Shown in pieces: positions 3,527-30,600 of a stretch of DNA of 64,000 nucleotides. Below the pieces are notes generated by a model. The model saw nothing but the letters and a program-made list of their open reading frames with translations, did not search any database and was not told the origin of the DNA. Each line of letters opens with the position of its first letter. Position 1 is the first letter of the stretch. The DNA is taken from positions 2,240 through 66,239 of the forward strand of contig JAMPXH010000005.1 of assembly GCA_023701285.1 (NCBI GenBank). The letters run 5' to 3'. This DNA comes from Candidatus Didemnitutus sp. Lineage in GTDB: Bacteria; Verrucomicrobiota; Verrucomicrobiia; Opitutales; Opitutaceae. The position numbers and the translations under genes were made by a program.

Positions 3527-4963
3527 TTACGCCACCGTGCTCGGCGTGACTTGGCCGACGCGGATGGCGAAGGAGAACTTCGAGCCTTGGCCGGGCGTGC
3601 TCTCGACCCAGATGTTGCCGCCCATCAGCTCGGTGAGGCGCTTGCAGATGATCAGGCCGAGGCCCGTGCCGCCGTATTTGCGCGAGGTGGCGGCGTCGGC
3701 TTGGGCGAAGGGGCGGAACAGCTTGGCGATCTGCTCGGGAGTGAGCCCGACGCCGGTGTCCTCGATGGTGAACCGGAGCAGCAGCTCGTCGCGTGCGTGG
3801 TCGGAGGCGAGGGCGTCGAGGTGCACGGTCACGCCGCCGCGGCGGGTGAATTTCACCGCGTTGCCGACGAGGTTGATGAGGATCTGGCGCAGGCGGTAGA
3901 CGTCGCCGGAGACGACGGCGGGCACGTCGATGGCGATCTTGCTGTCGAGGGCGAGCTGGGCGGCGTCGGCCTTGGGGGCGAAGAATGCGACGACATCCTG
4001 CACGCAGTTGCGCGGGGAGAAGGGGGCGTGCTCGAGCTCGATCTTGCCCGCCTCGATCTTGGAGAAGTCGAGGATGTCGTTGATGAGGAAAAGGAGCGAA
4101 TCGCCGCTGCTGCGGATCAGGTTCACGTATTCGCTCTGCTCGGCCGTGAGTTCGGTGTCGCCGAGGATGTCGGCGAAGCCGATCACACCGCTGATGGGGT
4201 TGCGGATCTCGTGGCTGACGATGGCGAGGAACTCGCCCTTGGCGCGGTTGGCGGCCTCGGCGGCCTCCTTGGCGCGGAGCAGCGCGGCCTCGGCGAGCTT
4301 GCGTGCGGTGATGTCGTGGCCGACGGCCTGATATTCGTGGATGCGGCCCTCGTTGTCGTGGATCTCGCGGACGATCCACTGCAGCCAGACCGTGCCGGCG
4401 GGGGTCGGGATTTCCTGCTCGAAGGTCTGCACCGCCGGGTCGCTGTTCCACGGCAGGCGGCTGCGGCTGGTGAGCCCGGCGAAGGGCGTGCCGAGCAGGT
4501 CGGCGCGCTTCTTCGCATAAAAGCGGCAGTAGGCGCCGTTCACAAACGTCAGCGTGCCGTCCTGCTTGTAGCGGCAGATCAGGTCGAACTGGTCCTCGAC
4601 GATGCCGCGGTAGCTGGCCTCCACGCGTTGCAACGAGCGCGCCATGCGCTCGATCTGCCGCGCGAGCCCGATGATCTCGTCGTGCCCAACCTCGTCGTCC
4701 TTGGCGGGTGCGGGCGGCTCGTCGAGGTCGGTCTGGATCGAGCGGGCTTGGCTGCCGAGCGCGCGCAGGCGCGTGATCATGGCGCGGTCCCAGAGGTAGC
4801 CGCTCAGGACCAGCAGCACGCAGCCGATGATCGAGAGGGACACGACGTAGTAGGCCGTGCCCATGCGCTCGCGCAGGTCGTCCTGCAAGATGATGGCGGC
4901 CAGGCCGGCCATCAGGCTCAGCGCGAGCGCGTAAATCATCGAGGTCTTGCGGGAACTGCTCAT
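3527..4963 (-). CDS. Membrane PAS-domain sensor histidine kinase (no receiver domain)
   Basis: Two TM helices, PAS (YRGIVEDQFDLICR), H-box FLAIVSHEIRNP, N-box QILINLVGNAVKFT, G-boxes DTGVG and GGTGLGL. Confidence 0.92.
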   Translation of the reverse strand: MSSSRKTSMIYALALSLMAGLAAIILQDDLRERMGTAYYVVSLSIIGCVLLVLSGYLWDRAMITRLRALGSQARSIQTDLDEPPAPAKDDEVGHDEIIGLARQIERMARSLQRVEASYRGIVEDQFDLICRYKQDGTLTFVNGAYCRFYAKKRADLLGTPFAGLTSRSRLPWNSDPAVQTFEQEIPTPAGTVWLQWIVREIHDNEGRIHEYQAVGHDITARKLAEAALLRAKEAAEAANRAKGEFLAIVSHEIRNPISGVIGFADILGDTELTAEQSEYVNLIRSSGDSLLFLINDILDFSKIEAGKIELEHAPFSPRNCVQDVVAFFAPKADAAQLALDSKIAIDVPAVVSGDVYRLRQILINLVGNAVKFTRRGGVTVHLDALASDHARDELLLRFTIEDTGVGLTPEQIAKLFRPFAQADAATSRKYGGTGLGLIICKRLTELMGGNIWVESTPGQGSKFSFAIRVGQVTPSTVA

Positions 4964-5023
4964 GCGGGGGTGTCTGCGACGCAGCGTGCGTCAATCTCAG
5001 GGATGTGTCTAACCGTTTTTAAC

Positions 5024-6388
5024 CTAGGGCTTTTCGGCCCCCTCAGAATCGAGTTGATGAAGCGGAGGCAGCGTCTTGAGTCCGGGCCAGACCAGAGCCA
5101 CCGCGGCCGCGACCGCGATGGAGCCGAGGCCGCCGAGCGTGGCAGCCAGCACCGGCCCGAGCAGCGCCGCGATCAGACCGGCGCGCAGGGCGGAGATCTC
5201 GTTCGAGGAGCCGATGAAGAGCTGGTTCACCGACGTGACGCGTCCGCGCAGGAAGTCGGGCGTCAGCAGTTGCACGACCGAGTGGCGCACGACCACGCTG
5301 ACGTTGTCGCAGGCGCCGCTGAGGAACAGCGCCAGCAGCGACAACCACAGCGACGAGGAGAGCCCGAAAACGATCATCGCGGCGCCGAAGCCGACGACGG
5401 ACCAGAGCATGACCAGCCCGGGCCGCCGCCACGGTGCCGAGTGCGCGACGACGAACGCCATCGTGATGGCGCCGAGCGCGGGCGCGGCACGCAGCCAGCC
5501 GAGCCCGGCCGGTCCGACGTGCAGGATCTGGTCGGCGTAGATCGGGAGGAGGATCACCGCGCCGCCGAAGATCACGGCGAACATGTCGAGCGTCATCGCC
5601 GCCAGCAGCGGCTGGCGCCGCCAGATGAAGCGGGCGCCGGCGAGCGTGCCCGTGTTCTGCCCGGAAGGCGCTGCCGCCGCCGGCGCGCTCCGCAGGGAGA
5701 CGCCGCGCAACGCCCAAGCGAGCGAGAGCGCGCAGACGACATCGAGCGCATAGACGAGCGAGTAGCCCGAGGCGGCGACGATCAGGCCGCCGAGCGCGGG
5801 GCCGACGACCGTGGAGAGTTCGAAGGTGCTCGAACTCCAGGTGACGGCGTTGCTCAGCGAGCGCGTCGGCACCAGCAGCGGCACGATCGAGCCGCGCGCC
5901 GGCGAGGCGATGACACGCACCACGGCGTGCAGCAACAGCAGCAGATAGACGAGGGGCAGAGCGGGCTTGTCGAAGGTCAGCGCGGACGGATCGACTTGTT
6001 GTTCGAAGACGAGGGCGATGGACCGCAGGCCGGCGTTGGCGGCGTCGAGCAGGGCGAGGCGCGGGATCGCCGCCTCGTAATGGCTGACAGCGGCGAGCGC
6101 GAGCGAGAGCAGGCTGGTGGCGGCCATGCCGCGCACGATGATCGTGCGGCGATCCACGCGATCCGCGAGCGCGCCGGCTGGCAGCACGAAGAGCAGCAGC
6201 GGGATGACGTTCACCAAGCCCACGAGGCCGAGCGCGGTGGCGGAGTGCGTCCACTGGTAGATCTGCCAGGTGGCCGCGATGCTGACGGCTTGGCGGCCGA
6301 TGTTCGTGAGGAAGTTGCCGATCAGGTAACGGCGATAACCGACCTCGCGCAGTGCGGCGTAAGGATCGCGGGCGCCGTCACTCGTCAT
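5024..6388 (-). CDS. MFS transporter (EntS/DHA3-like)
   Basis: About 12 hydrophobic segments, MFS motif A GALADRVDRR, and LRGRVTSVN in the second half. Confidence 0.88.
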   Translation of the reverse strand: MTSDGARDPYAALREVGYRRYLIGNFLTNIGRQAVSIAATWQIYQWTHSATALGLVGLVNVIPLLLFVLPAGALADRVDRRTIIVRGMAATSLLSLALAAVSHYEAAIPRLALLDAANAGLRSIALVFEQQVDPSALTFDKPALPLVYLLLLLHAVVRVIASPARGSIVPLLVPTRSLSNAVTWSSSTFELSTVVGPALGGLIVAASGYSLVYALDVVCALSLAWALRGVSLRSAPAAAAPSGQNTGTLAGARFIWRRQPLLAAMTLDMFAVIFGGAVILLPIYADQILHVGPAGLGWLRAAPALGAITMAFVVAHSAPWRRPGLVMLWSVVGFGAAMIVFGLSSSLWLSLLALFLSGACDNVSVVVRHSVVQLLTPDFLRGRVTSVNQLFIGSSNEISALRAGLIAALLGPVLAATLGGLGSIAVAAAVALVWPGLKTLPPLHQLDSEGAEKP

Positions 6389-6439
6389 GGCAGGCGGCCG
6401 CGAGGGCCGGGCCGGCGGCGGGGCGTGCTGGCCGGGGCT

Positions 6440-7264
6440 TCAACGCGCGAAGAACGGATTGTAGCGCCGTTCCTGGTTCAGGGTCGTCAACGGGCCGTGG
6501 CCCGGAGCGAGCACGGTGTCGGCGGGCAGGCGGAAGATTTTTTCCCGGTTGTTGGTCCACTGGTCGGCGTAGTGCTCGCGGCTGCCGCCCATCGAGGCGG
6601 CGAAGAGCGAGTCGCCCACGATGGCGAGCGGCCAGGAAAGCCCGGTGACGTAGAACGTGGTCTGGCCGGGCGAATGGCCCCAGGTGAGGAGCGTCTTGAT
6701 GGCCAGCTCGCCGAGGTGGAAGTGTGCGTTCTCGGCGAAGGTCTGCGCGCCCGGGAAGGGCGCCGGCTCGCGCTCGCTGGACCACACGGGCGCGCCCGTC
6801 GCGGTGGCGAGGCGGGTGAGATCGGCGACGTGATCCTCGTGCGTGTGGGTGAGGAAGATCATGCGCAGCGTGAGTTTCTCCGCGGCGATGGTGTCGAGCA
6901 GGGCGGTGGCGTCGGTGCCGGTGTCGAACGCGGCGGCGAGGCGCGTCTTGGCGTCCCACACGAGGTAGCTGTTCACCGTCATGTCGTCGTGGGCGGTGTT
7001 GAACATCGCGAAGCCGCGCGGGAAGAGCGGTTGCTCGGGATACCATTCCTTGCGCGCCAGCGAGAGCAGGGCGGCCGGGTTGAGCTGGAGGGCGCGGGCG
7101 ACGGCGCGCAGCGGGCGGTCGCGGATCTCGCCTTGCTGCAGGGCGGCGAACTCGGCGGCGCTGATGCCGGCCTTGGTTGTCAGGTCCGCATCGCTGAGGC
7201 GCAGGCCGCGCTGGGCCTTGCCGATGACGTCGGTGAAATTGTCCTCCAGGGGAATCCGTGGCAT
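6440..7264 (-). CDS. Metallo-beta-lactamase-fold hydrolase (glyoxalase II-like) with N-terminal XRE-like HTH
   Basis: THTHEDH metal motif, GHSPG, GDSLF, PGHGP and NPFF. The first ~70 aa are helical and HTH-like (LSDADLTTKAGIS). Confidence 0.85.
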   Translation of the reverse strand: MPRIPLEDNFTDVIGKAQRGLRLSDADLTTKAGISAAEFAALQQGEIRDRPLRAVARALQLNPAALLSLARKEWYPEQPLFPRGFAMFNTAHDDMTVNSYLVWDAKTRLAAAFDTGTDATALLDTIAAEKLTLRMIFLTHTHEDHVADLTRLATATGAPVWSSEREPAPFPGAQTFAENAHFHLGELAIKTLLTWGHSPGQTTFYVTGLSWPLAIVGDSLFAASMGGSREHYADQWTNNREKIFRLPADTVLAPGHGPLTTLNQERRYNPFFAR

Positions 7265-7357
7265 GGGCCGAGCATTCGCCGTCGCGCCCGCGCCGCAAGT
7301 GCGAAGCCGACGGCGCGGCTGTTGACCTGCCGCGGGCGGGACCGCATGCTGGCGGCG

Positions 7358-8005
7358 ATGAATCTACGAATCCTGGCCCTCCTGGCCTTGGTGGGGTGCG
7401 CGGGCGCGGTGGCGGCCGAAGCACCGAAACTGACCGCTTACGAGCGCTCGCAGGGATGGAAACTCCTCTTTGACGGCCGTGACACCTCGGACTGGCGCGC
7501 CTTCGGCGGCAACAAGCTGCCGGCCAACTGGCAGGTGCGGGACGGCTCGCTGGCCGGGGCGGCGGGCGGCGCGATCGCCAGTGCGGAGGAGTTCGGGGAT
7601 TTCGAGTTGCAGTTCGACTGGCGCGTGGCGCCCGGCGGCCGCGGCGCCGTGCACATCCGCGCTGACGAAGAGGCCGCCACGCCGGAAGCGAGCGGTCCGG
7701 TGATGCTGCTGGCCGGCCACGGCGACGCGCTGGGCGGCAACGGTCTCCGCGCCCCCGATCGCGCGATCCCGCCGCAATTCGATGTCTGGTATCGCGCCAA
7801 GATCGTCGTGTTCGGCAACCAAGTGGAGTATTTCATCAACGGCGACCGGGTCGCGAGCTACATGCTCGACACGGCGGAGTGGCGCGCGGCGGTCGCGGGC
7901 AGCCCGCAGGCCGGCGTGAAGGATTTCGGCCGGTTGCGCGCGGGGCGCATCGTGTTCACCGGCGAGGGTGTCGAGCTCCGCAACGTGAAGGTGCGCAACC
8001 TCTGA
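7358..8005 (+). CDS. DUF1080 / 3-keto-disaccharide hydrolase family exported protein
   Basis: C-terminal part of the 1484-aa track ORF. Signal peptide, GWKLLFDG, FGDFELQFDW, WYRAKI and FRNV-like (LRNVKVR) motifs. Confidence 0.85.
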   Translation: MNLRILALLALVGCAGAVAAEAPKLTAYERSQGWKLLFDGRDTSDWRAFGGNKLPANWQVRDGSLAGAAGGAIASAEEFGDFELQFDWRVAPGGRGAVHIRADEEAATPEASGPVMLLAGHGDALGGNGLRAPDRAIPPQFDVWYRAKIVVFGNQVEYFINGDRVASYMLDTAEWRAAVAGSPQAGVKDFGRLRAGRIVFTGEGVELRNVKVRNL

Positions 8006-8013
8006 GCCGGACC

Positions 8014-8123
8014 CATGCAGTTGGACGCGATTCCCGACTGATGAGCTCCTGACAATGGGGTGGTCGCCGCTGTCCCAGCGGCGACAGGCGTCGGTAGGGA
8101 CACCGACGCCCGCCACCTGCATG
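8014..8123. ncRNA. Candidate structured RNA or repeat element (multi-stem, complementary hairpin loops); family unassigned
   Basis: Closing stem 8014-8024/8113-8123, perfect hairpins at 8063-8085 and 8087-8110, and loop-region sequences TGTCCC and GGGACA that are complementary. Confidence 0.4.
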
Positions 8124-8192
8124 ATCCCGGCTGAGGCGGCGCGGCGGCGCGATCGCGCCACGGTTTCGCGGCGGACTGAAGCCGCGGGCCGG

Positions 8193-8226
8193 AAACCAAA
8201 CAGGCGGCGCCTCGCGGCGCCGCCTG
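8193..8226 (-). terminator. Intrinsic terminator of tolC
   Basis: 11-bp GC stem CAGGCGGCGCC/GGCGCCGCCTG followed on the minus strand by TTTGGTTT, 27 bp after the tolC stop. Confidence 0.6.
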
Positions 8227-8252
8227 CTGGACACACACACACTGACTGAAAT

Positions 8253-9728
8253 TCACTTCGGCAGCGCGACCTCGATGTTGAGCTTCTCGAGCGTGACGCC
8301 GAGTTGCCGGTCGTATTCCGCGACGGCGCGACGGTAGTCGGACTCGGCGCGGAGTTCCGCGACCTCGAGGGCGGCGAGGATTTCCTGCTGCTGGACGACG
8401 AAGAACGTGCTGCCCGTGCCGGCGCGGAGGCGCTTCTGCTCGGCGTCGAGCGCCTGCTGGCCGAGCTCGCGGGCGATGCGCGCGGCTTCGACACGCTTCC
8501 GCGTGGTCTCGATGTTGGCGGCGGCGTTGCCCACGGCGACGACGATGGATTGCTCCAGCTGCTGGAGATCGACCTCGGCCTGGCGGAGCTGATTCTTCGC
8601 GACGCGGTAGCGGCCGCGCTCGGAGGTGAAGGTGAGCGGCACGGTGACCTGCACGCCGTAGCTGTAGGAGCGGTAATCCTCGTTGCGCACCATGCGGCGG
8701 GCGACGCGGTCGTTGCCGTCGAGGCCGCTGTAGCCGTAGCTGCCGACGAGGTCGACGCGCGGGAGGATCTGGTTGCGCTGGTAGCGGAAGTTGATGTCGC
8801 TGCGCTTCACGCCGAGCTGCGCCTGTTGGTAGTCGGGGCGCTTCTGCAGGGCCTCCTTGAAGTCCAGCGCGGCGTCGGCGACGGTGACGGGCAGCGTGGT
8901 CATGGGCTCGATGTCGAGATGCCAGTCGAGCAGGCGCGGCGAGCGCTCGTCGGAGATGAGGGCCTTGAGGGTGTTCTCAGCTTCGCGGACGAGGCGCTCG
9001 GCGTTGAGGATGGACTCCTCGCGGTTGGCAAGACGGGAGCGTGCGGAGGTGACGTCGAATTCGGACATGGCACCGACGCGGAAGCGTTTTTCGTTCTCGC
9101 TCAGCAGCTGGGCGGCGAGTTCACGGGAACGCAGCGCGCTGCGCAGGTTGGCGTGCGCGAAATTGAGCTCGTAGTAGGCGAAGGTGACGCGCGTGACCGT
9201 ATCGATGATCGACTGGCGGAAGGCCCACTCGGAGATCGCGCGGTTCGTCTGCGCGATGCGGATCTGCGCCGTCGTGGCGCCGAAGCCGAAGCCGCGCAGC
9301 AGCGGCTGGCGCGCGGACAGGCCCGCAAAGGTGTCGTAGCTCTCGGCGAACGCCGTGCCGCGTGACTTCGCCTGCTCGGCGCCGAGCGAGTAGGTGAGGC
9401 CCCACGGCATCGTGCCGCCGAGCGCGAGTTCGAAGCTTTCCGCCTCGGAGCGGTTCGTCGTCGGGGCAATCTCGTCCTCGCCGTAAGAATAGGTGCCGGT
9501 CAGCTGCGGGTCGAACAGGCCCAGCTCCTCGAGCACCCGGCCGCGGGCGATCGAGACTTCGAAGGCATCCGATTGGATGGTGAAATTCTTCGCGACGGCG
9601 CGGCGAATGGCCTCATCGAGCGTCAGCTTTTCGCGGGCTGCCGGCATGGCCTCCGTTTGCGCGTGCGCGCCGAGGGCGAGCAGGCCGAGGGCCGTGAAAA
9701 ATGCGAAAAGGCGCCGGAAATGCAGCAT
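8253..9728 (-). CDS. TolC-family outer membrane efflux protein
   Basis: Signal peptide, LTLDEAIRRAVAKN, repeated helical outer-membrane-efflux-protein halves and LPRVDLVGSYG. An alternative start lies at 9761. Confidence 0.88.
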   Translation of the reverse strand: MLHFRRLFAFFTALGLLALGAHAQTEAMPAAREKLTLDEAIRRAVAKNFTIQSDAFEVSIARGRVLEELGLFDPQLTGTYSYGEDEIAPTTNRSEAESFELALGGTMPWGLTYSLGAEQAKSRGTAFAESYDTFAGLSARQPLLRGFGFGATTAQIRIAQTNRAISEWAFRQSIIDTVTRVTFAYYELNFAHANLRSALRSRELAAQLLSENEKRFRVGAMSEFDVTSARSRLANREESILNAERLVREAENTLKALISDERSPRLLDWHLDIEPMTTLPVTVADAALDFKEALQKRPDYQQAQLGVKRSDINFRYQRNQILPRVDLVGSYGYSGLDGNDRVARRMVRNEDYRSYSYGVQVTVPLTFTSERGRYRVAKNQLRQAEVDLQQLEQSIVVAVGNAAANIETTRKRVEAARIARELGQQALDAEQKRLRAGTGSTFFVVQQQEILAALEVAELRAESDYRRAVAEYDRQLGVTLEKLNIEVALPK

Positions 9729-9784
9729 GGGGAAGGTGCGAGTGTGGCCGCTCATTTGCAACCGCTGTGCCAGCGCGCAGCCTT

Positions 9785-17262: not shown

Positions 17263-18651
17263 ATGGAGCCCTCGCATTCCGACCTTGGCCGCCGGCGCCA
17301 GCGCGAAATCTATGTCGCGGGGGTGGGCGGACGCCGTCCGGCGGTGCCGGTGGCCGCCGCTGAGTTGGAGGCCGCGGCCCGGCAGGCGATGGCGCCCGAA
17401 GCCTTCGCTTACGTGGCCGGCGGCGCCGGACGCGAGACGACGATGGAGGCCAACCGCGCGGCGTTCGATCGCTGGAAGATCGTCCCGCGCGTCCTGCGCG
17501 ATGTCGAACAGCGGGACCTGACGATCGAGCTGTTCGGCCAGTCCCTGCCGTCGCCGCTGTTGCTTGCGCCGATCGGCGTGCTGGAGATGGCGCATCGCGA
17601 TGCCGATCTCGCGGTCGCCCGGGCGGCGGTGGCTCTGCGCGTGCCGTTCATCTTTTCCAACCAGGCTTCGGTGCCGATGGAGGCTTGCGCTGCTGCGATG
17701 GGTGAGGCGCCGCGCTGGTTCCAACTCTACTGGAGCCGCTCCGACGAAGTCGTCGCGAGTTTCGCGCGCCGTGCGGAGGCCTGCGGTTGCGGCGCGATCG
17801 TGCTGACGCTCGACACGACGATGCTCGGCTGGCGTCCGCGCGACCTGGATCTGGGTTACCTGCCGTTCCTGCGCGGGCTGGGCATCGCGCAATACACCAG
17901 CGATCCGGTGTTCATGCGCGAGGTGCGCGCGCTGTGTGCGGCGGAGTCGGGTAGGGCGAGTTCTCCGAACGAGCCGGCATCCGGTTCGCAGCGAGGGACG
18001 GCTCGTTCGGAGAACTCGCCCTACCCAGGGAACTCGCCTTACCCGGAGAACTCGCCGCACCCGGAGGCTCGGCCGCCTCTTTCATGGCAGACGATCGCGG
18101 CCGCACTGGCGCAAAAGGCGAATTTTCCCGGCGGGCTGTGGCGCAACCTCGGCTCAGGCGAGCCGCGTGCGGCCGTGCAGCGGTTCGTCGGCACGTATTC
18201 GCGTCCGTCGCTGCGTTGGGAGGATGTGAAATTTCTCCGCCGGCACACGAAGCTGCCGATCTTGCTCAAGGGCGTGTTGCACCCTGACGACGCGCGTCTC
18301 GCGGCCCAACTCGGGCTCGACGGTCTCATCGTCTCGAATCACGGCGGCCGGCAGATCGATGGCGGGATCGCGGCGCTGGACGCGTTGCCCGCCATCGTCG
18401 ACGCCGTGGGCGGGCGCATGCCGGTGCTGTTCGACAGCGGTGTGCGCGGCGGCGCGGATGTGTTCAAGGCGCTCGCGCTCGGCGCGACGGCGGTGTGCTT
18501 GGGGCGCCCCTACGTTTACGGCCTCGCGCTCGCCGGCGAAGTGGGCGTGCGCGAAGTGATGTCGAACGTGCTGGCGGAATTCGACCTCACGATGGGCCTG
18601 GCGGGCTGCACGAGCATGGCAGAAGTTAAGCGCGAGGCGCTCGCCGGTTAG
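17263..18651 (+). CDS. FMN-dependent alpha-hydroxy acid oxidase (lactate 2-monooxygenase-like) with in-frame repeat insertion
   Basis: APIGV, WFQLY, LTLDT, LLKG, SNHGGRQ (catalytic His/Arg), DSGVRGG and GRPY motifs. Confidence 0.9.
17949..18062. repeat. REP-like palindrome (28-bp perfect arms, 22-bp spacer) plus two degenerate 18-bp tandem copies, inside the CDS
   Basis: GGGTAGGGCGAGTTCTCCGAACGAGCCG (17949-17976) and its exact reverse complement (17999-18026). Then AGGGAACTCGCCTTACCC and GGAGAACTCGCCGCACCC. Total 114 bp = 38 codons. Confidence 0.88.
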
Positions 18652-21600
18652 CGGCGGCGCGTCCGGCGCCAGCCAGCCAGGGCGAGAGCGGCGAGGCCGA
18701 GCAGCGCGGCGTAGGTGGACGGTTCGGGAATCGCGGTGAACACGAGATCGACGTTCTGGCCGTTTTGCGCAACGGACCATGTGCCGCCGTTGAGCGCGTT
18801 GGTGAAGCCGCTCGCGTTGATCGCGAAATAACTGGAGTTGAAGCCCGTGATGCCGCCGCTGGCACTGGCGATGGTGAAACTGTAGTTTTCCGCGGGGTTA
18901 AAGTTCGCGGCGAAGCCGGCGGTGTTGGCGAGGGTCAGCGACACGAGTTGGAGCGTGAATTTGCTTTCGGCGGTGGCCGTGAGCGACAGGACTCCGTTGA
19001 TGTTGGCGAAATCCCAACCGGGATCACTGCCGGCGCTGCCGGTGGCGTCGTTGATTTCCCAAAGATAATTGCCGCCGCCGGCCCAGGTCGTGTTGCCGGA
19101 GTGGAGCGTGCCCGGCGAGTTGCCCGGCGCAAACGTGCCGCCGTTCGCGATGGTGAGCGCGCCGGTGGTGCCCGTGCCGCTGAGCGTGCCGCCGGCGACG
19201 GTGAACGCGCTGTTGGCCACGGTGCCCGTGAGCTTGAGTTCGCCGCCAGTGACCTCGGTTTCGCCGGAGTAGGTGTGGGTGCCGCCGAGGGCGAGAACGC
19301 CGGTGCCCGTTTTCACGAGGCCGCCGTCGCCGGCGATCGAACCGGTGAAGTTGGAGTCGGTGTTCTGCGCGACGGTGAGGCTGGCTTGGTTGAGGGCGAC
19401 GTTGCCTGAGCCTTCCAAGCGGCCGACAGTGGCGGAGTGCTCGGCGACTTCGAGCGTGGCATCCGCCGCGATGTTCACAGGTGCGCTGTGGGGAAGGGCG
19501 CCGGCCGCGGCGAGGCGGAGCGTGCCTTGCGAGAGTGTGACTCCGCCGGAAAACGTATTCGCATTGCCCAGGATGAGCATGCCCGGACCGTCGAGCACGA
19601 GGCCGCCGGCGCCGGAGAGTTGTCCGGTGAATGTGTTTGTGCCCGTGGGCGCGACGGCGAGTCCGGCCGAGCCGGTGTCGAGGGCGCCGTCGCCGCTGAG
19701 GCCGCCGAGCGCGAGCGCGAAGCCGTTGGCGTCGAAATTCGCGCCGGACGCAACGTGCAGCGTGGTGTGCGGGCTGAGCGCGTCGGCGATGCCAAGTCGC
19801 AGCGTGCCGGCGTTGACGAAGGTGTCGCCGGCGTAGGTGTTCGTGCCGCCGAGAATGAGCGTGCCGGCGCCGAGTTTGGTGAGGTGGTTGCCGGCGGCGC
19901 CGGATATGTTCCCGCTCCACGCCAGCGTGACATCGGCCGCTGTCTCGAACGCGCCGCCACCGGCGTTGAGCGTGACGTTGCGCGCCGAGGTGAAGTCCGC
20001 CGTCGCGCGCAGTGCGCCGCCGCCGAATGTGATCGCGCCGCTGGCGTTGCCGAGTGCCGTGTCAGCGGCAATCGCGAGCGTGCCGGCGTTGACGTGGATG
20101 CCGCCGGAAAACGTATTCGCGCCGCCGAGGGCGAGGACGCCGTCGCCGGATTTCGTGAGCGCGCCGACGCCGGCGATGATGCCGTCGTAAGTGAGCGCCT
20201 TGTCCTCGAACGTGCGCAACTCGCCGTGATTGGCGCCGAGCGTGATGCCGCGACGCGCATCGAGGGCGAAGCTCTCGAACGCGGCGAGGGCACCGCCGTT
20301 GAGCACGAGGCGACCCGCGGTGGCGTTGGTCGGCGCGGTGCCGAGCGCGGCGTCGGCGCCGATCGCCAACATGCCTGCTTCCACCGTGGTGACGCCGGTG
20401 AAGGTGTTCGCACCGGTCAGGGTCAACGTGCCGGCGCCGCGCTTCGACAGGTTGCCGGTTTGGGGGATGAATTCGCCGGTGCTGATGTTGGTGGCGCCGC
20501 CGGGGCTGCTGATCACACCGGCGTAGGTGAGATCGTCGCTGCGGTTGAAACGCAGGGTGGGATTGGGACCGGTGAAAATCACGTTGCCGACGATCGAGCC
20601 GGTGGTGCCGCCGTTGCCGATTTGCAGAATCCCGCCTTGGATCGTCGTCGTGCCGGTGTAGGTGTTGGTGCCGGTGAGGCTGATATTGCCCGCGCCTTTG
20701 AAGAAGGCGCCGGTGCCGCTGATGTGGTTGGCCAGAACAAGATTGTTGCCCGACGTCGTCAGCAGGCCGTGATTCACGATGTCGCCGACCACGGTCGCGA
20801 GTGACAGTGTGAGCGTGCCGGACGAGATGAGCGTGCCGCCGGTGTAGGTTTGCGTGCCCGTCAGCGTGAGGGTGCCGCTACCGGTCTTGGTGAGTGAACC
20901 TGCGCCACTGAGCACGCCGGCATTGAGCGTCTTGGCCGCATCAATGGCGAAGGTGGCGCCATCGGCGCCCAGTTCGACCGGGCGCCCCGACAAACTGAAC
21001 GATTCGCTCGCGTGCAACGTGCCGCCGTTCACCAGCAGCGTGGCGGTCGTGTCCAATCCCAGCGCGGACGCCGCGGAGAGGGAAAGCGTGCCGTCCGTAA
21101 TCGCGGTGTTGCCGTAGAATTGCTGGTTCGCCGCCAAGGTGAGCGTGCTTTGGCCGGATTTCGTGAGGTGGCCGTAGCCGTAAATCGTGCCCGTGAATGC
21201 GGTGTCGGCGGCTTGATTGATCGTCAGCGAGGTGACGCGTTCCGTCGTGAAGGTGTTCAGATCGATGCGTCCATCACCGCTCAAGGTGCCGATGGAATTG
21301 ACGGTCTTGCGCAGGTCGAGTCGGGCGCCGGCGTTGATCGTCACGGCATGGGCGGCGGACATCACACCGTCGGCCTGAACCACCACGGTCGCCTGCGGTG
21401 ACGTGTTGTCGCCGGAATCGCTGTTGATCACGACGGGAGCCTGGATCGCGCCGGCGCTCATGAGGCTGGTGGAACCCTCGCCGCCGAACGAAATCGTGCC
21501 GCTGCCACGAAGTTGTCCGAAGAAGCTCTGGTAGCCGTAAACGAAGCCGAAACCTGAGCTGCCGAAATCGAGTGTGCCGGCGCCGGTGAAGCCATTGTAG

Positions 21601-24600
21601 AGATTCAACCGCTCGTGCGGCGTCTCGAGCGTGGCGCCTTGTTCGATGCTCAGCACGCCGAGGCCGCTGAGCGCATCGGCCGAATCAGCGCGCAGCACGC
21701 CGCCCTGCACCGTCAGGACGTTAATCGCATTGTCGGCGTCGATGACGAGCGTGCCCGCGCCGCGTTTGAGAAAATAGCCGGCCGAATCGCCGGGCCCAGC
21801 GGTAATCCGACCGCTCCAAGTCGCGGTGACGCCCTCGACCACGTCGACGCCGCCGTTCCACGTGTAGAGCGGACGCGTGGTGGCGAAGGCTTCCGTCATG
21901 CGCACGAAGGCGCCGTTGGTGAGGTCCACCGCGGCGCCGGTCTCGCCGAGTGCAGCGTCGTGTCCGACCGCGACAGTGGAATTGCTGACGATCGTCTGCG
22001 CGTGGGTGTTGCTGCCGAGCAAGGTCAGCACTCCGCCACCGCTGACGAACAGTCGCCCGTGATCGGTGGTCGCGGGATTCGCGCGGGTGATGGCGGACGC
22101 GAAGGTGATTTCGTTGCCGTTCAGATCGAGGCTGGTATAGCCGCTGGCCAGCGGGGCGAGTCGCGCGGAAATGTCACCCGTGTTGCCCTCGCCCCACCGC
22201 AGGATTCCGTTCACCACGATGTCGCCGGTGCCCAGACTCGCGGCGTCGCCGAATTCAACGGTGCCGTTCACCACGGTGCCGCCGCTGTAGGTGTTGGTGC
22301 CGTTGAGCGTGAACAACCCGTGGTTGAGCGTGAGGCCGCCGGTGCCGGTGATCGGGCCATTGAGGATGACTTCGTTGAACTGGCCGCGCGTGGCGAACGT
22401 GGCGTCGGACGTCAACTCGATCGCCCGGCTCGAGGTGATTCCGTAGGTGATCAAGTTGCCGCCGGCGAACACGAGGTTGGCCGCGCTCGCGCCGAGGGCG
22501 CGATCATCGGAGACGTCGAGCAAGCCGCCCGCGATGCGCCAGGTGCCGGCGAAGGTGTTGCTGATGTTTTCCAGGCTAAGTTCGCCGTCGCCCGTTTTCG
22601 TGATCTCACCGCTGCCGCTCGTGACGCCCCACAATTGCAGGTCGTGGCCCGCTGTCGCGACGTGCAGCGTGCCGCCGTTCGCCGTGACGGCGAGGTTACC
22701 CCAGCGGGAGAACGATGCGTTGGCCTGCAGCGTGCCGCCCGCCAGCGTGAGTCCTGCGCTGGAGCCGCCGATGGCTGCTTCGTTCGCAATCGCGAGGGTG
22801 CCGCCGGCAATCGTCGTGCCGCCACTGTAGGAGTTGCTGCCCGAGAGCGTCAGCACGCCCGCGCCGATCTTGGTCAAACCGCCGTTGCCGCCGACATTTG
22901 TCAGACTGATGTTGTTGCCGTTGCTGTCGATCGAGCCACCGGCCGCCCCGAGCGAGAGGTTGCGCGACGAGAGATCGGCGGTCGAACCGCTCGCCCAGCG
23001 CAGGCCGCCACCGTTGAGCGTGAGGTCGCCGCTGCCGAGATTTGCCAGCGACCCGAACTCGACCAAGCCGCCGGTGACGTGCGTGCCGCCGGCGTAGGTG
23101 TTCGTGCCGGTGAGCGCGAGGATGCCGTCGCCCGCTTTCGTCAGTGCGCCGGTGCCACTGATGGCGCCGGCGAGCGTGACGTCGTTGCCGTTGGTGTGAA
23201 ACGCGCCGCCGCTGGCGCCCAGCGCGTTCAGGCGCGGCGAGACGTCGACGTTCGTGTCCGCGGCCCACTGCACGCCGCCGCCGTTCAGCGTGAGGCTGCC
23301 GGTGCCGAAGTTCGACAGGCTTGCGAACTGAATGAAGCCGCCGGTGGCGGTCGTGCCGCCAGTGAAGGTGTTGACGCCGCTCAACGCGAGAACGCCCGCG
23401 CCGCTCTTCGCCAGCCCGCCGCCGGCGGCGGTGCCGTCGCTGATGACTCCGCTGATGAGCACGGTGCCGGAATTCGCGAGCGCCAGCGTGCCGGCTTGTG
23501 CGGTGTTCGAAAGCAGGACGTTACCGGCCAGCGCCGTCATGCTGGAGTTCGTGACGGTCAACGTGCGCGATGTGGCGCCATCCGTGTCGTGCGTGAAGTT
23601 GCCCGAGAGCGTAAGCGCGGTGTCGCCGCCGATCACGGCTGAGTTCCTCAGCAGCACGGAATTTGCGACACTGACCGGCGAACCGGTGGCGCGGAGCTCG
23701 CCGCCTTCGATGCGCAGGCCGCCCGTGCCGAGCGCGTGCGCGTGGCCGAGCGCGAGGATGCCGGCCTGCAGCGTCGTGCCGCCGGAGTAGGTGTTGTTGC
23801 CCGAGAGCGCGAGCGTGCCGGCGCCGGTTTTCACCAGTGCGCCGTTCGTGCTCGTGCCGCCGTTTTCGACGACGCCGGTGAATGCGATCTGGCCGCTGCC
23901 GGCGATGGTGAACGTGCGTGACGTGGCGGAGTCGGACAACTGCGCGCCGCCGAAGCTGAGCGAGGCGATGTTGGCGAAGTTCAGCGTCACGTCGCTGCCG
24001 GACTGGTTGAGCAACTGGCCGGTGAACGTCAGGTCCGACGTGCCGCCGAAACCGATGGAGGGCGAACTGATCGCGACGGCGTTGGTCAGCGTGCGCGCCG
24101 AGCCGTTGCCCTGCAGCGTGCCGCCCGCGAGGTGCAGCGTGCCGGTGCCGAACGCGCCGTCGCTGCCGGCCACGAGCGTGCCGGATTCGAGTCGCGTGTC
24201 GCCGGCGTAGGTGTTGTTGCCCGAGAGCGTCAGCGTGTGCGTGCCGGTCTTGGTCAGGGTGGCGTTGGCGTTCGTGCCGGAGATGTCGCCGATGAAGTTC
24301 AGGTCTTTCGTGCCGCCGATGGCGGCATTGCCGGAGAGCGTCACGCGATTGTAGACGGTGTTCAACGTGCCGGCGCCGCGCAGCTCGCCGCCGGCGAGGT
24401 CGATGAACGTGTTGCCGAACGCGTAGACGTTCGTGCCGATCAGCACGCCGTCCTCGAGCCGCATGCCGTAGTGGAAATTTTCGCCGCTCAGCGTGAGCGT
24501 GCCGCTGCCGACCTTGATCAGACCGAATCCGCGTTGGCCGTCCGCGACGACGCCGGAAAGCGTGAGATTCTCCGCGCCGCCGACGCGCAGATTGCCGTCG

Positions 24601-27600
24601 AGCCAGATGTTGCCGGCGTGACTGCGCGCCGCGCCGGCGGCGAGCAACGCGCCGCCCGCGGCGACGAGGCGGTTGTCGTTGAGCGCGCGATCGCTGGCGA
24701 GGGCCAGCGTGCCGTCGAGCAAGCGGACGTCGCCGGTGAAGGTGTTGGTGCCGGTGAGCGTCAGCGTGCCGGCGCCGGCTTTCGTGAACGCTGCGCCGTT
24801 GGCGAGCGTGCCGGTGAAGTTGGTCGAGAGCTGCACGTCGTTGCCGTTCGTGTCGAACGTCGCGCCGGCGGCGATTTCTCCGCCGAGCCGCGAAGAGACA
24901 TCGGTGGTGGTCCCGCTGGCCCAGCGCAGCCCGCCACCTTGCAGGCCGATGTTGCCCGAGCCGAGATTGGCGAGGGAGCCGAACTCCACCAAGCCGCCGT
25001 AGGCCAGCAGGCCATTGAAGGAGTTGTTGCCGGTCAACACGAGCGTGTTCGCGTCGCGTTTCAGCAGGATGCCGGCGCCGGCGATGTCGCCCGAGAGCGT
25101 GAGCTGAGTCGTGCCGCCGATGTCGGTGTGGTTGGTGAACGTGAGGTCGTTGGCGATGGTGCGGCCACCGGTGCCGCCCGCGTGCAAGTCGCCGCCGTTG
25201 AAGTTCACGGCGCCGGTGCCGAAGGCGCTGTCGTGCGCGACGGTCACGACGCCCAACGACACGGCGGTGCCGCCGGAGTAGGTGTTAGCGCCGGAGAGCG
25301 TGAGATCGCCTTCGCCGTTTTTCGTGAGCGCACCGGTGCCGGAAATTTCTCCGCTGAGCGCGAGATCGGTCGTCGTCGTGAGCGTGGTGCTGGCGTTGAG
25401 TTCGACGTTGTTCGCCACGGCGTGGCTGCCGTGGTTGGAGCGCAAGGTGCCGCCGTCGACCACGAGCGTGCCGGTGCCGAGCGCGTCGCTGTGGCCGATG
25501 ACGAGTTGGCCGCCGCTGACGGTGGTGTTGCCGGTGTAGGTGTTGGCACCGGAGAGCGTGAGCGCGCCTGAGCCGGTTTTGACGATGCCGGCCGCAGTGG
25601 CTTCGATCGGCGCGATGTTGCCGGCGAGCGTGACGTTGGAAGAGCCGGAAACGGCGAGGTTCGTGCCGAGTCCGATCGCGTTTTGCAAGGTGCGGTCGCC
25701 GCTGGTTTGGAACGTGCCGCCCTCGATGCGCAGCGTGCCGGTGCCGAGTGCGTTGTCGTGCGCGGCAACGAGCGTGCCGTCCGTGAGCGTGACTCCGCCG
25801 TCGAAGGCGTTGTCGCCGCTCAAAGTGAGGGAGCCCGCGCCGCTCTTGGTCAGACCGTAACTGGCGCCGAAACCGTCGGTGATCGCGCCGGAGAGCACGG
25901 CGCCGCTCGCGCCTACGCTCAGCGTGGAATTGCTCGACAGCGCGGTGGCGCCCGAGAGGGTCAATAAATGCGAGCCGGCGAGCGTGACGTCGCCATCGAG
26001 CGCGACCGTGTTCGCCAGCGTGCGCGGCGCGATGCTCGTGGCGAGCGTGCCGTTGCGCAAAGTGAGTTGTCCGCTGCCGAGTGCGGAATCATGCGCGAGC
26101 ACGAGGGTGCCGCTGCTCAGCGTAGTGCCGCCGGTGTAGGTGTTGTTCGCCGTGAGCGTGAGCGAGCCGCTGCCGGATTTCTCGAGTCGGCCCGCGACGC
26201 CGGTGATCGTGCCGCTGTAAGTGGTGGTGGCGTTGCCGCTGATTTCGAGTTCGCCGCTGGAGAGCGCGATCGTGCCGCCGCCGGTGAGGGAATGGATGTT
26301 CTGCGTCGTGCCGATGAGTTTAAGCGTCGCGTTTTGCCCGAGGGAAACGGCGGAGGCTTCGGGCAAAACGTAGTTCGTGCCGAGTTCCAGGGTGCCATTG
26401 GCCAGGGAGGTCGCGCCGGTGTAAGTGTGCTGATTTCCCAGACGAAGCTCAGCGGAGCCGGTTTTCGTGAAGCCGCCGGTGCCGGAGATGACGCCGTTGA
26501 AAATGTTGTTGGTGAAATCCTCGAGCGTGAGCGTCGCATCGCCGAGGAGGATGCGCGTCGTGCTGAAGTCGCTGGCGAGCTGCGCGAAGGTGGTCGAGTG
26601 GCCGTTGAGATCAAGAGCACCATCGTAGTTTAATGTCAGCGACGATTGGGGCAAAATGTTCGCGGCGCCGAGGCGCAGCGTGCCGCCGCTCACGATGGTC
26701 GACGTGAAGCTGCTGGTGGCGTTCGTGAGCGTGAGCGTGCCATCGCCGACTTTGGTGAAACTGGAGTTCGTCAGGATGCGTCCGTCGAACGTGCTGCTCG
26801 CGCCGCCCGCGCCGACCGAAACGGGTGCATCGATCACGCTGAAAATGCCGCTGCCGCTGAGCGCGCCGATGGTCGCGGAGGTCATGAAGACGTCGAACGT
26901 CGCGCCACTCGCGAGGTGCACGCCGCCGGCGGTCACGAGCGGTGCGCCGTAAACGGTCAAGGTGCCTTGCTGGACGTCGAAGCTGCCGCTGTGGGCGTTG
27001 GCGGCATTGAGCGAGAGTTGGCCGGAGCCGGTCTTCGTCATCGTGCTCGTGCCGCTGATGCCGTTGCTCAGGAGGACGGTGTGGCCGTTGGTGTCGAACG
27101 TGCCGCCGTTGGCGCCGAGCGCGATGCGCGTGCCGGGCGTGCCGTTGCCTCCGCTCCAGCGCAGGCCGCCGCCGTCGAGCGTGAGTAGACCGCTGCCGAG
27201 ATTGGCGGCGGTGGCGATCTGAAGAAAACCTTCCGTGATGGTGGTGCTGCCGAGGAACGCGTTCGTGCCGCTGAGCGTGAGCGTGCCACTGCCGCTCTTG
27301 AGCAGCGTGCTGCTGGTGCTGTTGCCGGTGAGGTTGCCGAGTGTCACCGCGCCGCTGTTCACGAGGCTGAGCGAGCGGTTGAGTTCGTGCGGCAACAGGA
27401 CGTGGCTGAAGGTGGTCGAGCCCGCGTTGCTGACGGTCAACGTGGGGTTGTCGGCATCGACGCGCAGGTGCGCGATCGTGAGGGCCGCGTTGCCGGTGAT
27501 CGCGGTGTCTCCGGCGAGCGAGACCGTGCCGGAGGCGTTTTGCGCCGTGCGCGCTTCGAGCGTGCCGGCGTGCATCGTCAGCGTCCCGGAGCCGAGGGCG

Positions 27601-30600
27601 GTATCGCTCGCGAGTGTGACGCTGCCTGCATGGACGTGCGTGCCGGCGTGCGCGCCGGTGCCCGCCAGCGTGAGCGTGCCGCTGCCGAGTTTGATCAACT
27701 CTCCATTTGAAGACGCCGTGCCGCCGACGGTAACGTTGTGGGTGTGGTTCAGCGTGACGCTGCGTTGGGTGTTCGTCGGATCGACTTGGAGCAACGCGAA
27801 AGTGGTGTTGCCGGTGTTTGCGATGGTGAGCACGGCGTCGCCGCCGGTGTGGTTCGTCACTGTGCCGCCGAACGTGAGCGCGGAGTTGCCGCCGATGGTT
27901 GTGTTGGTCGTCACCGAAACGGCATTGGCCAGCGTGCGCTCATTGCCGTCGCCGCGAAGTTCGGCGCCAGCGAGCGTGAGCGTGCCGGTGCCGAAGGCGG
28001 CATTGTGTCCGGCGATGACGGTGCCACCTGCGAGCGTGGCGCCGCCGGAAAAAGTGTTGTTGCCGGAGAAGGTCTGCGTGGCGCCGCCGGATTTGAGGAG
28101 CGTGCCGCTGCCGCTGATGTTGCCCGTGTAGGTGGCGTTGCCGGTGTCTCCGTTCAGGGTCAGCTGCGTGTTCGGTCCGTGGAGGGCGATGATGCCGTTG
28201 CCCGTCAAGCGGCCCGCGGTGAGGCTGCTGGTGTTGGTGGCGTCGGCTTCCCCCAGTTCAAGCGTGCCGTGATTGGTGAAAAGATCCGCGGTGGAGAACG
28301 TGCCGGTGCTGACGCGCAGGACGCCGGTGGCGGCATTCGTGACGAGATTGGCGAGCGCGTTGGCGCCGTTGGTCGCGTTCACGAATTGCCCGCCGGAGTA
28401 GAGCGTGATCTCCGCGGCGTTCGTGTGGAGGTCCGCTCCGGTGAACGCGAGTGTGCCGGCGACTTCATAGCGGCCGCCGGTCAGCGTGTGGTTCGCGTAG
28501 TTGGTGAACGCGCCTTCGCTCGTGTCGATTTCGAGGCGGGCGCTGGCCTCGGCGCGCAGCAGGCCTTGGTTGGTGAAGCCGCCGGAGTCTGGTTTGATGA
28601 GCAACGTGGAGCCGGGCGCGGTCGCGCGGATCGTGCCGCCGGAGGCGTTGACGAAACTGACGTCCTCGATCGCGCCGGCGCCGCTGATCGTGTTGTCCGT
28701 GTTCGTAAGGGCAACGGTTGCGCCGTTCGCGGCGGTGAGGCGGCCGCTCGCGGCCCAGGTGTGCGTGGTCTCGTCGCCGACGGTCGTGCTCACGCGCCCG
28801 CCGAGTTGGATTTCGCCGCCGCCGGTCAGCGTGGAATTTCCGGTGAACGCGATCGTGCCCGCGTTCGTCGTGCCGGAGGTGCCGACGAAAATATCGCCGG
28901 CGTTCGCGACGTCGCCGCCGACGCGCAGGGTGGCGGCGTTGTCGATCTCGATCACGCCCGCGGCGGCGTTCTGCACGTTGGTGCCGAGCGTGGCGGTGGC
29001 GTTGGCGTCGGTGTGGCGAATGGCGCCTTCGTTCGCGAGCGTGCCGGTGCCGTCGATGATGGCGCCATTCGTGAGCACGATCGAGCCGCCGTTGGTGAAG
29101 ACGGTGCCGCCGCCGAGTTCGAGGCGGGTGGGCACGTTGACGTTGCCGCTGTTGACGAGCGTGAGCGTGGAGCCGAAGCCGGTGGAGGCGGACGTCGTCG
29201 CCGAAAGCGTGGTGTGGCCCGCGGCGATGTTCAACTGGGCGAGCGGGGCGACATCGAACTCGGCGAGCGCGAGCGTGGCATCGTCGAGCGTGAGAGTGCC
29301 GCCGGTGGCGACTTCGACGCGGCCGCCGTTGATGGTGGCGTTGGCGATGAGCATGGCGCCGTGCGACGCGATGCGTCCGGCGGTGGTGCCTTCGAAGTTC
29401 GTCACGGTCACGTCGCGAATCGTGAGCAGGCTCGGCGTGAAGGTGGGCTGCGACAGATCGGGTTCGCCGTTGACGAGCGGGTAGGTGAACGAGCCGTTCG
29501 CGCGAATGACGCCGCTGTTGGTAAGGTTGGCGCCGGAACTGTGGGTGAGGAGCAGGCCGGACGCGCCGAACGATTCGATCAGGCCGCGGTTGATGAGTTT
29601 CGCGCGAAACTCACCGGCGCCGAGCAGCATGTGCGTGGCGGAGTTGATGATCGTGCCGCCGCTGTCGACGAGCTGGTTTGCGGTTGAGTCGGTGAATTGG
29701 ATGCTCCCGGAGCCCGCGAGCGTGAGCGTGCCTTCGGCGCCGAGCTGCGCGCCGGTCGCGCCGCTGTGCTGCAGGAGAATGATGCCGTCGTTGTTGATCG
29801 TGGCGCCGCTTTTCGCGAGCAGCGTCGCGCCGGATTCAACCATCAATCCCGAGTCGTCCGTGAGCGTGAGATTGCCGGTGGATTGGAGCGTGAACGCCTG
29901 GTCGGGCGCGGTCGAAAAGAGCGCGCCGTCGGCGAGAATCAGCGATCCTGCGACGGAGTTCAGCGTGAGGCCGTCGATGCTCGTGTTCGTGCCGGTGCGG
30001 CGGGAGAAGCGCCAGTCGTCGCCGGCGAGCGTGAGCGTGTTGTTCGCGGCGAGCGCGGTGATCGGGGTGCCCTTGTATTCGAGGGTGCCGGCGAGGATAA
30101 GGTTGCCGATGCCGGAGAGCGTGCCGTCGGCGGCGACGTTGGACCAGTTGGAGGCGTCGGCATAGGTGAGCGTGCCGAGCGAACTCAACGTGGCGCCGGG
30201 CCCGATGAGAATGGTGCCGGTGTTGGTGAGCGTGTTGCGGAAGCCCAGCCAGCCGCTCGCGCCGGTGACGGTGATGAGACCGGTGCTGTGATTGGTGAGC
30301 GCTTCGACGCTCTTGAGCACCTGGCTCTGGAGGAAGAGCGAACCACGGTTGATGGCGAGGTAGGTGAGCGCGTCCTGGTTGTGGAACTGATTGTAGAAGG
30401 AGCCGCCAAGCACGTTGAGCGTGGTGCCGGCGCCGATCTCGCGGATGTTCGGGGCGGCGGTTTCACCCGTGCCATAGGCGACGGTGCCGCCGAGATTCCA
30501 CGTGCCGCCGGTGAGCGTGGCGGTGCGCGCGTCGAGGTCGACATTGGAAAAATTGCCGAGCATGCCGTCGACTTCGATGCGGCCGTCGGTCGTGAGATTG

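Follow-up and report, generated by a model that had tools for sequence, protein, structure and literature searches.

A 124-bp MITE with a REPIN-like core, likely mobilised by an IS1380-type transposase, at the stop codon of a DUF1080 gene in Candidatus Didemnitutus

The gap between the DUF1080 and tolC genes

The DNA analysed (the window) is a stretch of 64,000 nucleotides from the genome referred to here as G000 (4.02 Mb in 220 contigs, 95% complete). Two convergent genes, for a DUF1080/3-keto-disaccharide hydrolase and for a TolC/OEP outer-membrane efflux protein, leave between the TGA stop codon of the former (8003-8005) and the stop codon of the latter at 8253 a gap of 247 bp (8006-8252). 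The first-pass annotation had placed a multi-stem element in this gap, beyond a terminator-like hairpin of tolC at 8203-8228, and the flanking genes, the gap and the hairpin were all borne out. The DUF1080 gene was identified by Pfam PF06439 (E = 3e-23) over the final 181 residues of the frame ending at 8005, and a signal-peptide-like start is found at 7346/7358. The complete plus-strand open frame of 1,484 aa (3551-8005) is mostly spurious and real only from about 7346; it runs antisense to genes for a histidine kinase (3527-4963), an MFS transporter (5024-6388) and a metallo-beta-lactamase-fold protein (6440-7264), and its GC3 of 0.87 is restricted to the 7346-8005 part. A short (CA)6 run is present at 8231-8243, between the tolC stop codon and the tolC terminator-like hairpin. 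The features of the locus, with other genome assemblies designated like G000, are:

7346-8005, plus strand: DUF1080/3-keto-disaccharide hydrolase gene, predicted secreted; the upstream gene, whose own stop codon is the insertion target
8002-8006, no strand: left target-site duplication CTGAG, which takes in the stop codon of the upstream gene (TGA, 8003-8005)
8007-8024, plus strand: left terminal inverted repeat (TIR) CCGGACCCATGCAGTTGG (consensus CCGGACTCATGCAGTTGG), the conserved end of the family, identical to the ends of IS1380-family insertion sequences (IS) in G021 and G009
8025-8058, plus strand: left arm, specific to the MITE, holding CTGATGAG-CTC-CTGA (8038-8052) and conserved among the G000 copies
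8059-8085, plus strand: REP unit 1, a GGTGG head followed by hairpin 1 (stem TCGCCGCTG, loop TCC)
8087-8117, minus strand: REP unit 2, inverted, hairpin 2 followed by CCACC; its minus-strand reading is GGTGG-(CG)-GCGTCGGTG-TCCC-TACCGACGCC
8113-8130, minus strand: right TIR CCACCTGCATGATCCCGG (minus strand CCGGGATCATGCAGGTGG), overlapping the head of REP unit 2
8131-8135, no strand: right target-site duplication CTGAG
8203-8228: terminator-like hairpin of tolC, followed by TTTGGTTT, outside the MITE
8253-9761, minus strand: TolC/OEP outer-membrane efflux protein gene, convergent (Pfam PF02321, E = 8e-47)

The multi-stem element belongs to a family of non-coding MITEs of 124 bp and occupies window positions 8007-8130, with its core at 8059-8117. 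It had originally been delimited as 8014-8123; the features described within that span lie at the coordinates given for them, but the natural unit is larger, comprising 8007-8130 and the 5-bp duplications at 8002-8006 and 8131-8135. Its outer stem, CATGCAGTTGG (8014-8024) with CCACCTGCATG (8113-8123), has 10 of 11 positions paired as claimed and is formed by the terminal repeats pairing with each other. The two hairpins, GTCGCCGCTG-TCC-CAGCGGCGAC (8063-8085) and GGCGTCGGT-AGGGAC-ACCGACGCC (8087-8110), proved to be perfect as described, and the segment CTGATGAGCTCCTGA was found at 8038-8052. The reported complementarity of the hairpin loops was confirmed, TGTCCC and GGGACA being exact complements, with the correction that the hexamer takes in stem-closing pairs, the loop of hairpin 1 being 3 nt long (TCC).

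Copies, target sites and terminal repeats

All 40 scored candidates in G000 were near-identical copies of the element, and BLAST of this genome recovered 81 full-length copies and about 24 partial ones, which mostly lie at contig ends. Many scattered copies had been named beforehand as the sign of a REP/MITE, so the count of about 100 dispersed copies with terminal inverted repeats and target-site duplications, and the empty site of a relative, show that the palindromic-repeat reading offered by the first-pass annotation was the right one. The full copies were on average 94.8% identical to the consensus and 90.8% identical to each other. The consensus is CTNAG-CCGGACTCATGCAGTTGG...CCTGCATGATCCCGG-CTNAG, in which the terminal inverted repeats are CCGGACTCATGCAGTTGG and CCGGGATCATGCAGGAGG. 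One copy (G000:C103:483-632) has a solo extra terminal repeat (CCGGACTCATGCGG) immediately after its right duplication, which could be the remnant of a tandem or nested insertion.

The CTNAG pentamers at the two ends were identical in 56 of the 81 full copies. When the copies were strictly defined, the middle base was matched in 31 of 34, as compared with a chance expectation of 0.47 (p = 9e-8). About 94% of the MITE sites in G000 are CTGAG or CTCAG, and the scarcity of A or T as the middle base mirrors the availability of sites (286 CTWAG against about 3,900 CTSAG).

An empty site was found in G023, a genome of the same genus whose flanking sequences are 95-96% identical to those of the window. 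It contains a single uninterrupted CTGAG and reads ...GCGCAGCCT-CTGAG-GGGGCGCGG..., that is, the window without 8007-8135; given as ...GTGCGCAGCCT-CTGAG-GGGGCGCGGCGG..., it joins window positions 8002-8006 directly to 8136. The insertion therefore consisted of the 124-bp element (8007-8130) and one duplicated CTGAG. For 14 further MITE loci the two flanks were joined and then searched against G023 (86% complete): six gave contiguous empty sites, at three the junction was rearranged or diverged, five had no match, and no locus carried a MITE. Since no match to the MITE or to its TIR was detected in the G023 assembly, the approximately 100 copies of G000 arose after the split of the two lineages. 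The element thus has the properties by which MITEs are recognised, namely a length below about 300 bp (124 bp), absence of coding sequence, many copies, terminal inverted repeats, a target duplication and an empty site.

The same ends occur widely in the genus. Of 27 further genomes of the genus, 18 contain a 19-nt end pattern (CTNAG followed by CCGGRHYCATGCAG); the reversed pattern, run as a control in G000, gave no match. MITEs bounded by the same TIR but with unrelated interiors were seen in G009, G012 and G041 (133-303 bp) and in G042 and G019 (135-225 bp); the CCGGGATCATGCAG variant of the right end is found on the G012 MITEs too. A complete IS with the TIRs of the MITE (CCGGACTCATGCAG) was located in G021:C10. 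It is 1,493 bp long, is flanked by CTNAG and encodes a 473-aa transposase that matched the IS1380-family model NCBIfam NF033539 with 241.8 bits (cut-off 180 bits, E = 1e-71) and Pfam DDE_Tnp_1_4 (PF13701) with E = 1e-41. At least 16 contig ends of G009 break about 140 bp inside the same IS, and one end of this IS contains the start of a transposase gene. The IS copies of G009 are mostly at CTAAG/CTTAG (16 of the 22 ends listed); the G000 MITE is at CTSAG, a difference that counts against the link between the two. The only G009 IS end lying away from a contig end (G009:C46) was taken as a candidate full IS and turned out to be a truncated end; loci in G097 and G062 were likewise rejected as full copies, having no TIR pair.

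No IS1380-family transposase was found in the G000 assembly, a 95%-complete draft whose contigs break at repeats, which gave neither a PF01609 match nor a tblastn match with the G021 transposase, and the TIRs were not detected there outside MITE copies, nor was any IS end. The MITE and the G021-type IS share only their terminal 14-18 bp, and the left arm (8025-8058) is absent from that IS and from the other MITEs with the same TIR. The MITE is thus not an internal-deletion derivative of the IS, and the terminal match alone does not establish its descent from it. Ends starting with CC and a target duplication of 4-5 bp are typical of IS1380-family elements in the ISfinder classification, and the transposase that moves the MITE is, as judged from its ends and target, likely to belong to this family. 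Members of the family, among them ISEcp1 and ISPme1, mobilise neighbouring DNA through IR-like sequences that serve as alternative ends (PMC9330008). By analogy, such use of alternative ends is a plausible route by which an unrelated segment could have gained functional ends.

The REP doublet core and a model of its insertion

The interior of the element is a REPIN-like doublet, in which two REP units face each other, both built from a GGTGG head, a stem of 9-10 bp and a GTCCC loop. On its own strand, unit 2 agrees with unit 1 in the head and in the TGTCCC loop and has a different but self-complementary stem. The arrangement GGTGG-stem-GTCCC-stem followed by the inverted unit and CCACC was seen in 25 of 25 aligned doublets. 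Most matches in related genomes cover 8059-8114 alone or hairpin 1 alone, and the copies of the core found there are bounded by GGTGG...CCACC, have unique flanks and are without IS1380-type ends. The hairpin 1 unit occurs in congeners solo or in REPIN doublets and flanks RAYT genes; the REP unit is present in Opitutaceae assemblies labelled Opitutus sp., Oleiharenicola sp. and Candidatus Didemnitutus sp. Classic REPINs were found in G014 and G003, where the unit GGTGGTCGCCGCTGTCCCAGCGGCGAC forms two identical inverted copies, 25-30 nt apart, in one long hairpin. In G013, G014 and G002 these REP units flank RAYT genes (small HUH/Y1 proteins with the motifs HxH and Y-I-R-x-N-P), and in the sister species the unit is presumably moved by the RAYT tyrosine transposase.

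In the model that we favour, an IS1380-family DDE transposase, supplied in trans, would most likely recognise the TIRs of about 14-18 bp (CCGGACTCATGCAG...) and cut the palindromic target CTNAG with a 5-bp stagger, leaving CTNAG duplications on both sides of the element. In the window, the MITE landed in the CTGAG that holds the stop codon (TGA) of the DUF1080 gene; with the stop codon regenerated by the duplication, the protein is unchanged, and the inserted MITE becomes the start of the 3' untranslated region of that gene. Its interior is not a deleted IS but a REPIN-like doublet, which was probably captured. We infer in this model both the movement by an IS1380-type transposase and the capture of the REPIN. 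That the element is a non-autonomous MITE, likely mobilised by an IS1380-type transposase and with a REPIN-like doublet as cargo, is in our judgement highly probable.

Bacterial MITEs mobilised in trans by DDE-type IS include the Correia elements of Neisseria, RUP of the pneumococcus and MITEAba12 (PMC6382973, PMC2229807). The element resembles them in its 124-bp non-coding sequence, TIRs matching those of an IS, duplication of fixed length, about 100 dispersed intergenic copies, presence or absence between close relatives, and folding into a long stem-loop. It differs from them in having IS1380-family TIRs, an interior that is a REP doublet and not IS-derived, and a CTNAG target as a result of which most copies overlap a TGA stop codon. 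Its autonomous relative in G021 passes the model of the IS1380 family (ISEcp1, ISPme1, IS1380) and shares with that family CC ends and the 5-bp duplication; unlike those elements, the MITE in the window has no transposase, and no member of the family is assembled in G000.

REPINs consist of two inverted REP units folding into a long hairpin (Bertels and Rainey 2011, PMC3116915, PMC3337134); REPs and their RAYTs are also treated by Nunvar 2010 (PMC2817692). The core agrees with these in its pair of inverted REP units, both of which have a hairpin and a conserved head that is unpaired. In contrast to REPINs, the units in the window are 1 nt apart and have different stems, which favours two separate hairpins (-39.7 kcal/mol against -22.5 kcal/mol for a single long hairpin), and the G000 copies bear DDE-type TIRs and target-site duplications while a cognate RAYT is absent. 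In the GTAG- and CGTC-tagged REP superfamilies an unpaired tetranucleotide stands at one end of the stem-loop, and such repeats have been reported for Verrucomicrobia (O. terrae) (PMC3733652). These too are short tagged stem-loops, often in inverted dimers, whereas the unpaired tag of the MITE core is GGTGG. Membership of the CGTC-tagged REPs was considered and rejected, the CGTC of hairpin 2 being paired within the stem (definition in PMC3733652).

Limited text searches of the literature found no description of an IS1380-linked MITE, or of a REP doublet between DDE-type ends. The element ties a MITE to the IS1380 family and would be a chimera in which a REP doublet, normally a substrate of a tyrosine transposase, was amplified by a DDE-type mechanism. 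Transport of foreign DNA by means of alternative ends is known in the IS1380 family from the mobilisation of resistance genes. The MITE family, with its consensus, ends and target defined, also breaks Opitutaceae assemblies, in which many contigs end inside a copy.

Position at stop codons and alternative explanations

In 54 of the 71 copies with enough flanking sequence, a long frame of high GC3 ends with the TGA of CTGAG or, where the site reads CTCAG, with the complementary TGA; no copy lies inside a coding sequence. After in silico excision of the copies, 7.0% of the stop-type CTGAG sites were occupied, as compared with 0.7% of the other sites classed as non-coding (Fisher p = 5e-13); a second gene caller gave 6.6% and 1.1%, respectively. 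Both callers under-call (coding fractions 0.74 and 0.63), by which the 'other' class is inflated, and the enrichment is therefore bracketed at approximately 2-10-fold; the true value may be only about 2-5-fold. Much of it is due to the target containing TGA, to stop codons making up about 600 of perhaps 1,000 usable CTSAG sites, and to selection against insertions in coding sequences and promoters. With a target of this kind, insertions are silent for the protein and yet rewrite the 3' UTR of dozens of genes.

The alternative that survives best is compatible with a MITE origin. It holds that the element arrived by transposition and that its REP hairpins have been co-opted in the 3' UTR, where they now act as a 3'-exonuclease barrier, a terminator or an attenuator in the upstream mRNA, the roles described for REPs in enterobacteria. 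This would explain the concentration of copies just past stop codons, where 54 of 71 begin, and the higher occupancy of stop-type sites (7.0% against 0.7-1% elsewhere in non-coding sequence). The MITEs of G042 and G019, which have the same TIR and lack the REP units, abut a stop codon in only about 6-7 of 20 cases. Orthologous core doublets have been kept about 15 nt after the stop codon in both G002 and G013, and divergence among the G000 copies is 3.3-3.5% in the hairpin units and about 6%, roughly twice as high, in the remaining parts (the arms); this lower divergence of the hairpins could reflect selection on a function for the host and is not predicted if the element is purely selfish. 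However, the orientation of the copies relative to the adjacent gene is not biased (23 against 31), no U-tract or terminator-like site accompanies the hairpins, and the TGA in the target, the availability of sites and selection may account for most of the enrichment. Co-option is for these reasons regarded as unlikely. A stronger form, in which the MITE is preferentially delivered to or retained at C-TGA-G and provides a double-hairpin 3'-UTR module on about 50 genes, appears somewhat more doubtful still. If it were true, an mRNA 3'-end stabiliser or attenuator would have spread through a genome on a transposon, and a REPIN would have escaped its RAYT by hitch-hiking between DDE-type IS ends. 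Any effect on transcripts might be read from the comparison with G023, as about 100 copies in one genome and none in a relative 95-96% identical to it amount to a natural experiment.

Movement of the whole 124-bp unit by a RAYT, as a large REPIN- or BIME-like element recognised through its single-stranded hairpins, was also considered. In its favour, REP doublets of the same kind as the core flank RAYT genes in congeners, and G000 itself has genes for a RAYT (C176) and for a Y1 transposase between TIRs (C144). However, HUH transposition makes no target duplication, and the element has a matched 5-bp CTNAG duplication, a single-CTGAG empty site and ends equal to those of an IS1380-type IS. Moreover, the RAYT of C176, the only one in G000, is 41% identical to the REP-flanked RAYT of G013 and has a different REP, with a GGGCGGTTG stem, in its own flanks; neither Y1 gene of G000 has hairpin-1 units beside it, and no cognate RAYT flanked by the REPs of the MITE was found within this genome. 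A RAYT was on these grounds, the target-site duplication and the other flanking repeats of the Y1 genes, rejected as the mover of the whole unit, an explanation that we hold to be very improbable. Of 158 GGTGG-tagged perfect hairpins in G000, 119 are the two units of the MITE; together with the different REP of its own RAYT, this indicates that in G000 the doublet was multiplied almost only as the cargo of a DDE-type MITE.

The inverted GGTGG-GGGCGGTTG-TCC REP units that flank the RAYT gene of G000:C176 (1330-1851) number about 15 in the genome; they have the head and loop of the MITE units and a different stem. The gene in G000:C144 (1410-2464) encodes a 330-aa Y1/HUH transposase (PF01797, E = 1.2e-11), unrelated to the MITE, and lies between terminal inverted repeats of 46 nt (AAAGGGGTCATGGCTTGACTCTTGACAAG...), an arrangement that Di Nocera et al. 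(2013, PMC3733652) call 'TIRtron/TIRYT'.

The remaining explanation was one of the two put forward with the discovery of the element: a dedicated RNA, either a structured small RNA or a ribozyme, having an outer stem, kissing hairpins and a hammerhead-like or kink-turn motif. The predicted folding is indeed strong: the 247-nt gap folds at -131.1 kcal/mol, as compared with -108.1 +/- 5.0 kcal/mol for shuffled sequences (z = -4.6, 0 of 200 shuffles as good), and its minus strand gives z = -5.2. The complementarity of the loops is kept in 85% of cells across relatives, with joint changes from GTCCC/GGGAC to TTCCAC/GTGGAA. However, a 6-bp loop-loop helix is sterically unlikely with the 3-nt loop of hairpin 1, the GGTGG heads are duplicated along with the loops, as predicted by inverted REP units and not by kissing, the outer stem is the TIR pair, and the approximately 100 copies are dispersed in both orientations with TIRs and target-site duplications. 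The covariation check proposed for the stems and the loop pair was informative for the stems, which are 96.5% paired with six pairs changed on both sides (0 of 500 shuffles reached the observed score); the pairing of the loops is explained by the inverted REP units. The 'kissing' complementarity arises from two REP units having the same loop on opposite strands, and the same arrangement accounts for the covariation of loops among subfamilies and for the invariant GGTGG/CCACC. Conservation of the stems is expected of REPs, both if they are recognised as DNA hairpins and if they function at the RNA level.

As to known RNA families, an Rfam scan of 7700-8600 (E <= 10) gave chance-level matches only and none at E <= 1. 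The core of a hammerhead is CUGAUGA ... GAAA with three helices, and a box C/D kink-turn has C (RUGAUGA) and D (CUGA) boxes joined by a terminal stem. The proposed hammerhead half-core was not upheld: the core is incomplete, GAAA is absent from the element and from the 124-bp consensus, CTGATGAG is replaced by CCGATGGG in the G021 homologue, and no hammerhead match was obtained in 7700-8600 up to E = 10. The kink-turn fared no better, with no hit at the motif, which is not conserved in G021; matches to C/D snoRNAs were confined to 7986-8007 and 8369-8589, at E = 1.5-9 and far below the gathering scores. An intrinsic terminator is a GC-rich hairpin followed by a U-tract; a promoter and terminator scan found no promoter-like site, no terminator-like site on either strand of 7900-8350 and no T-run after either hairpin. 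With about 100 transposon copies and no Rfam match at E <= 1, a tertiary-structured small RNA is not supported and appears scarcely credible. The element is ordinary mobile DNA, not a dedicated structured RNA, and one candidate novel RNA is thereby removed from the annotation.

Other repeats were observed in the window. A perfect 28-nt inverted repeat (GGGTAGGGCGAGTTCTCCGAACGAGCCG and its complement, 22 nt apart) at 17949-18026 is a GTAG-type REP doublet, of a family different from that of the REP units of the MITE. On the minus strand of 19100-32900, a giant repeat-protein gene contains dozens of direct repeats (families D1-D18), which are diverged and have periods of about 260-570 bp.
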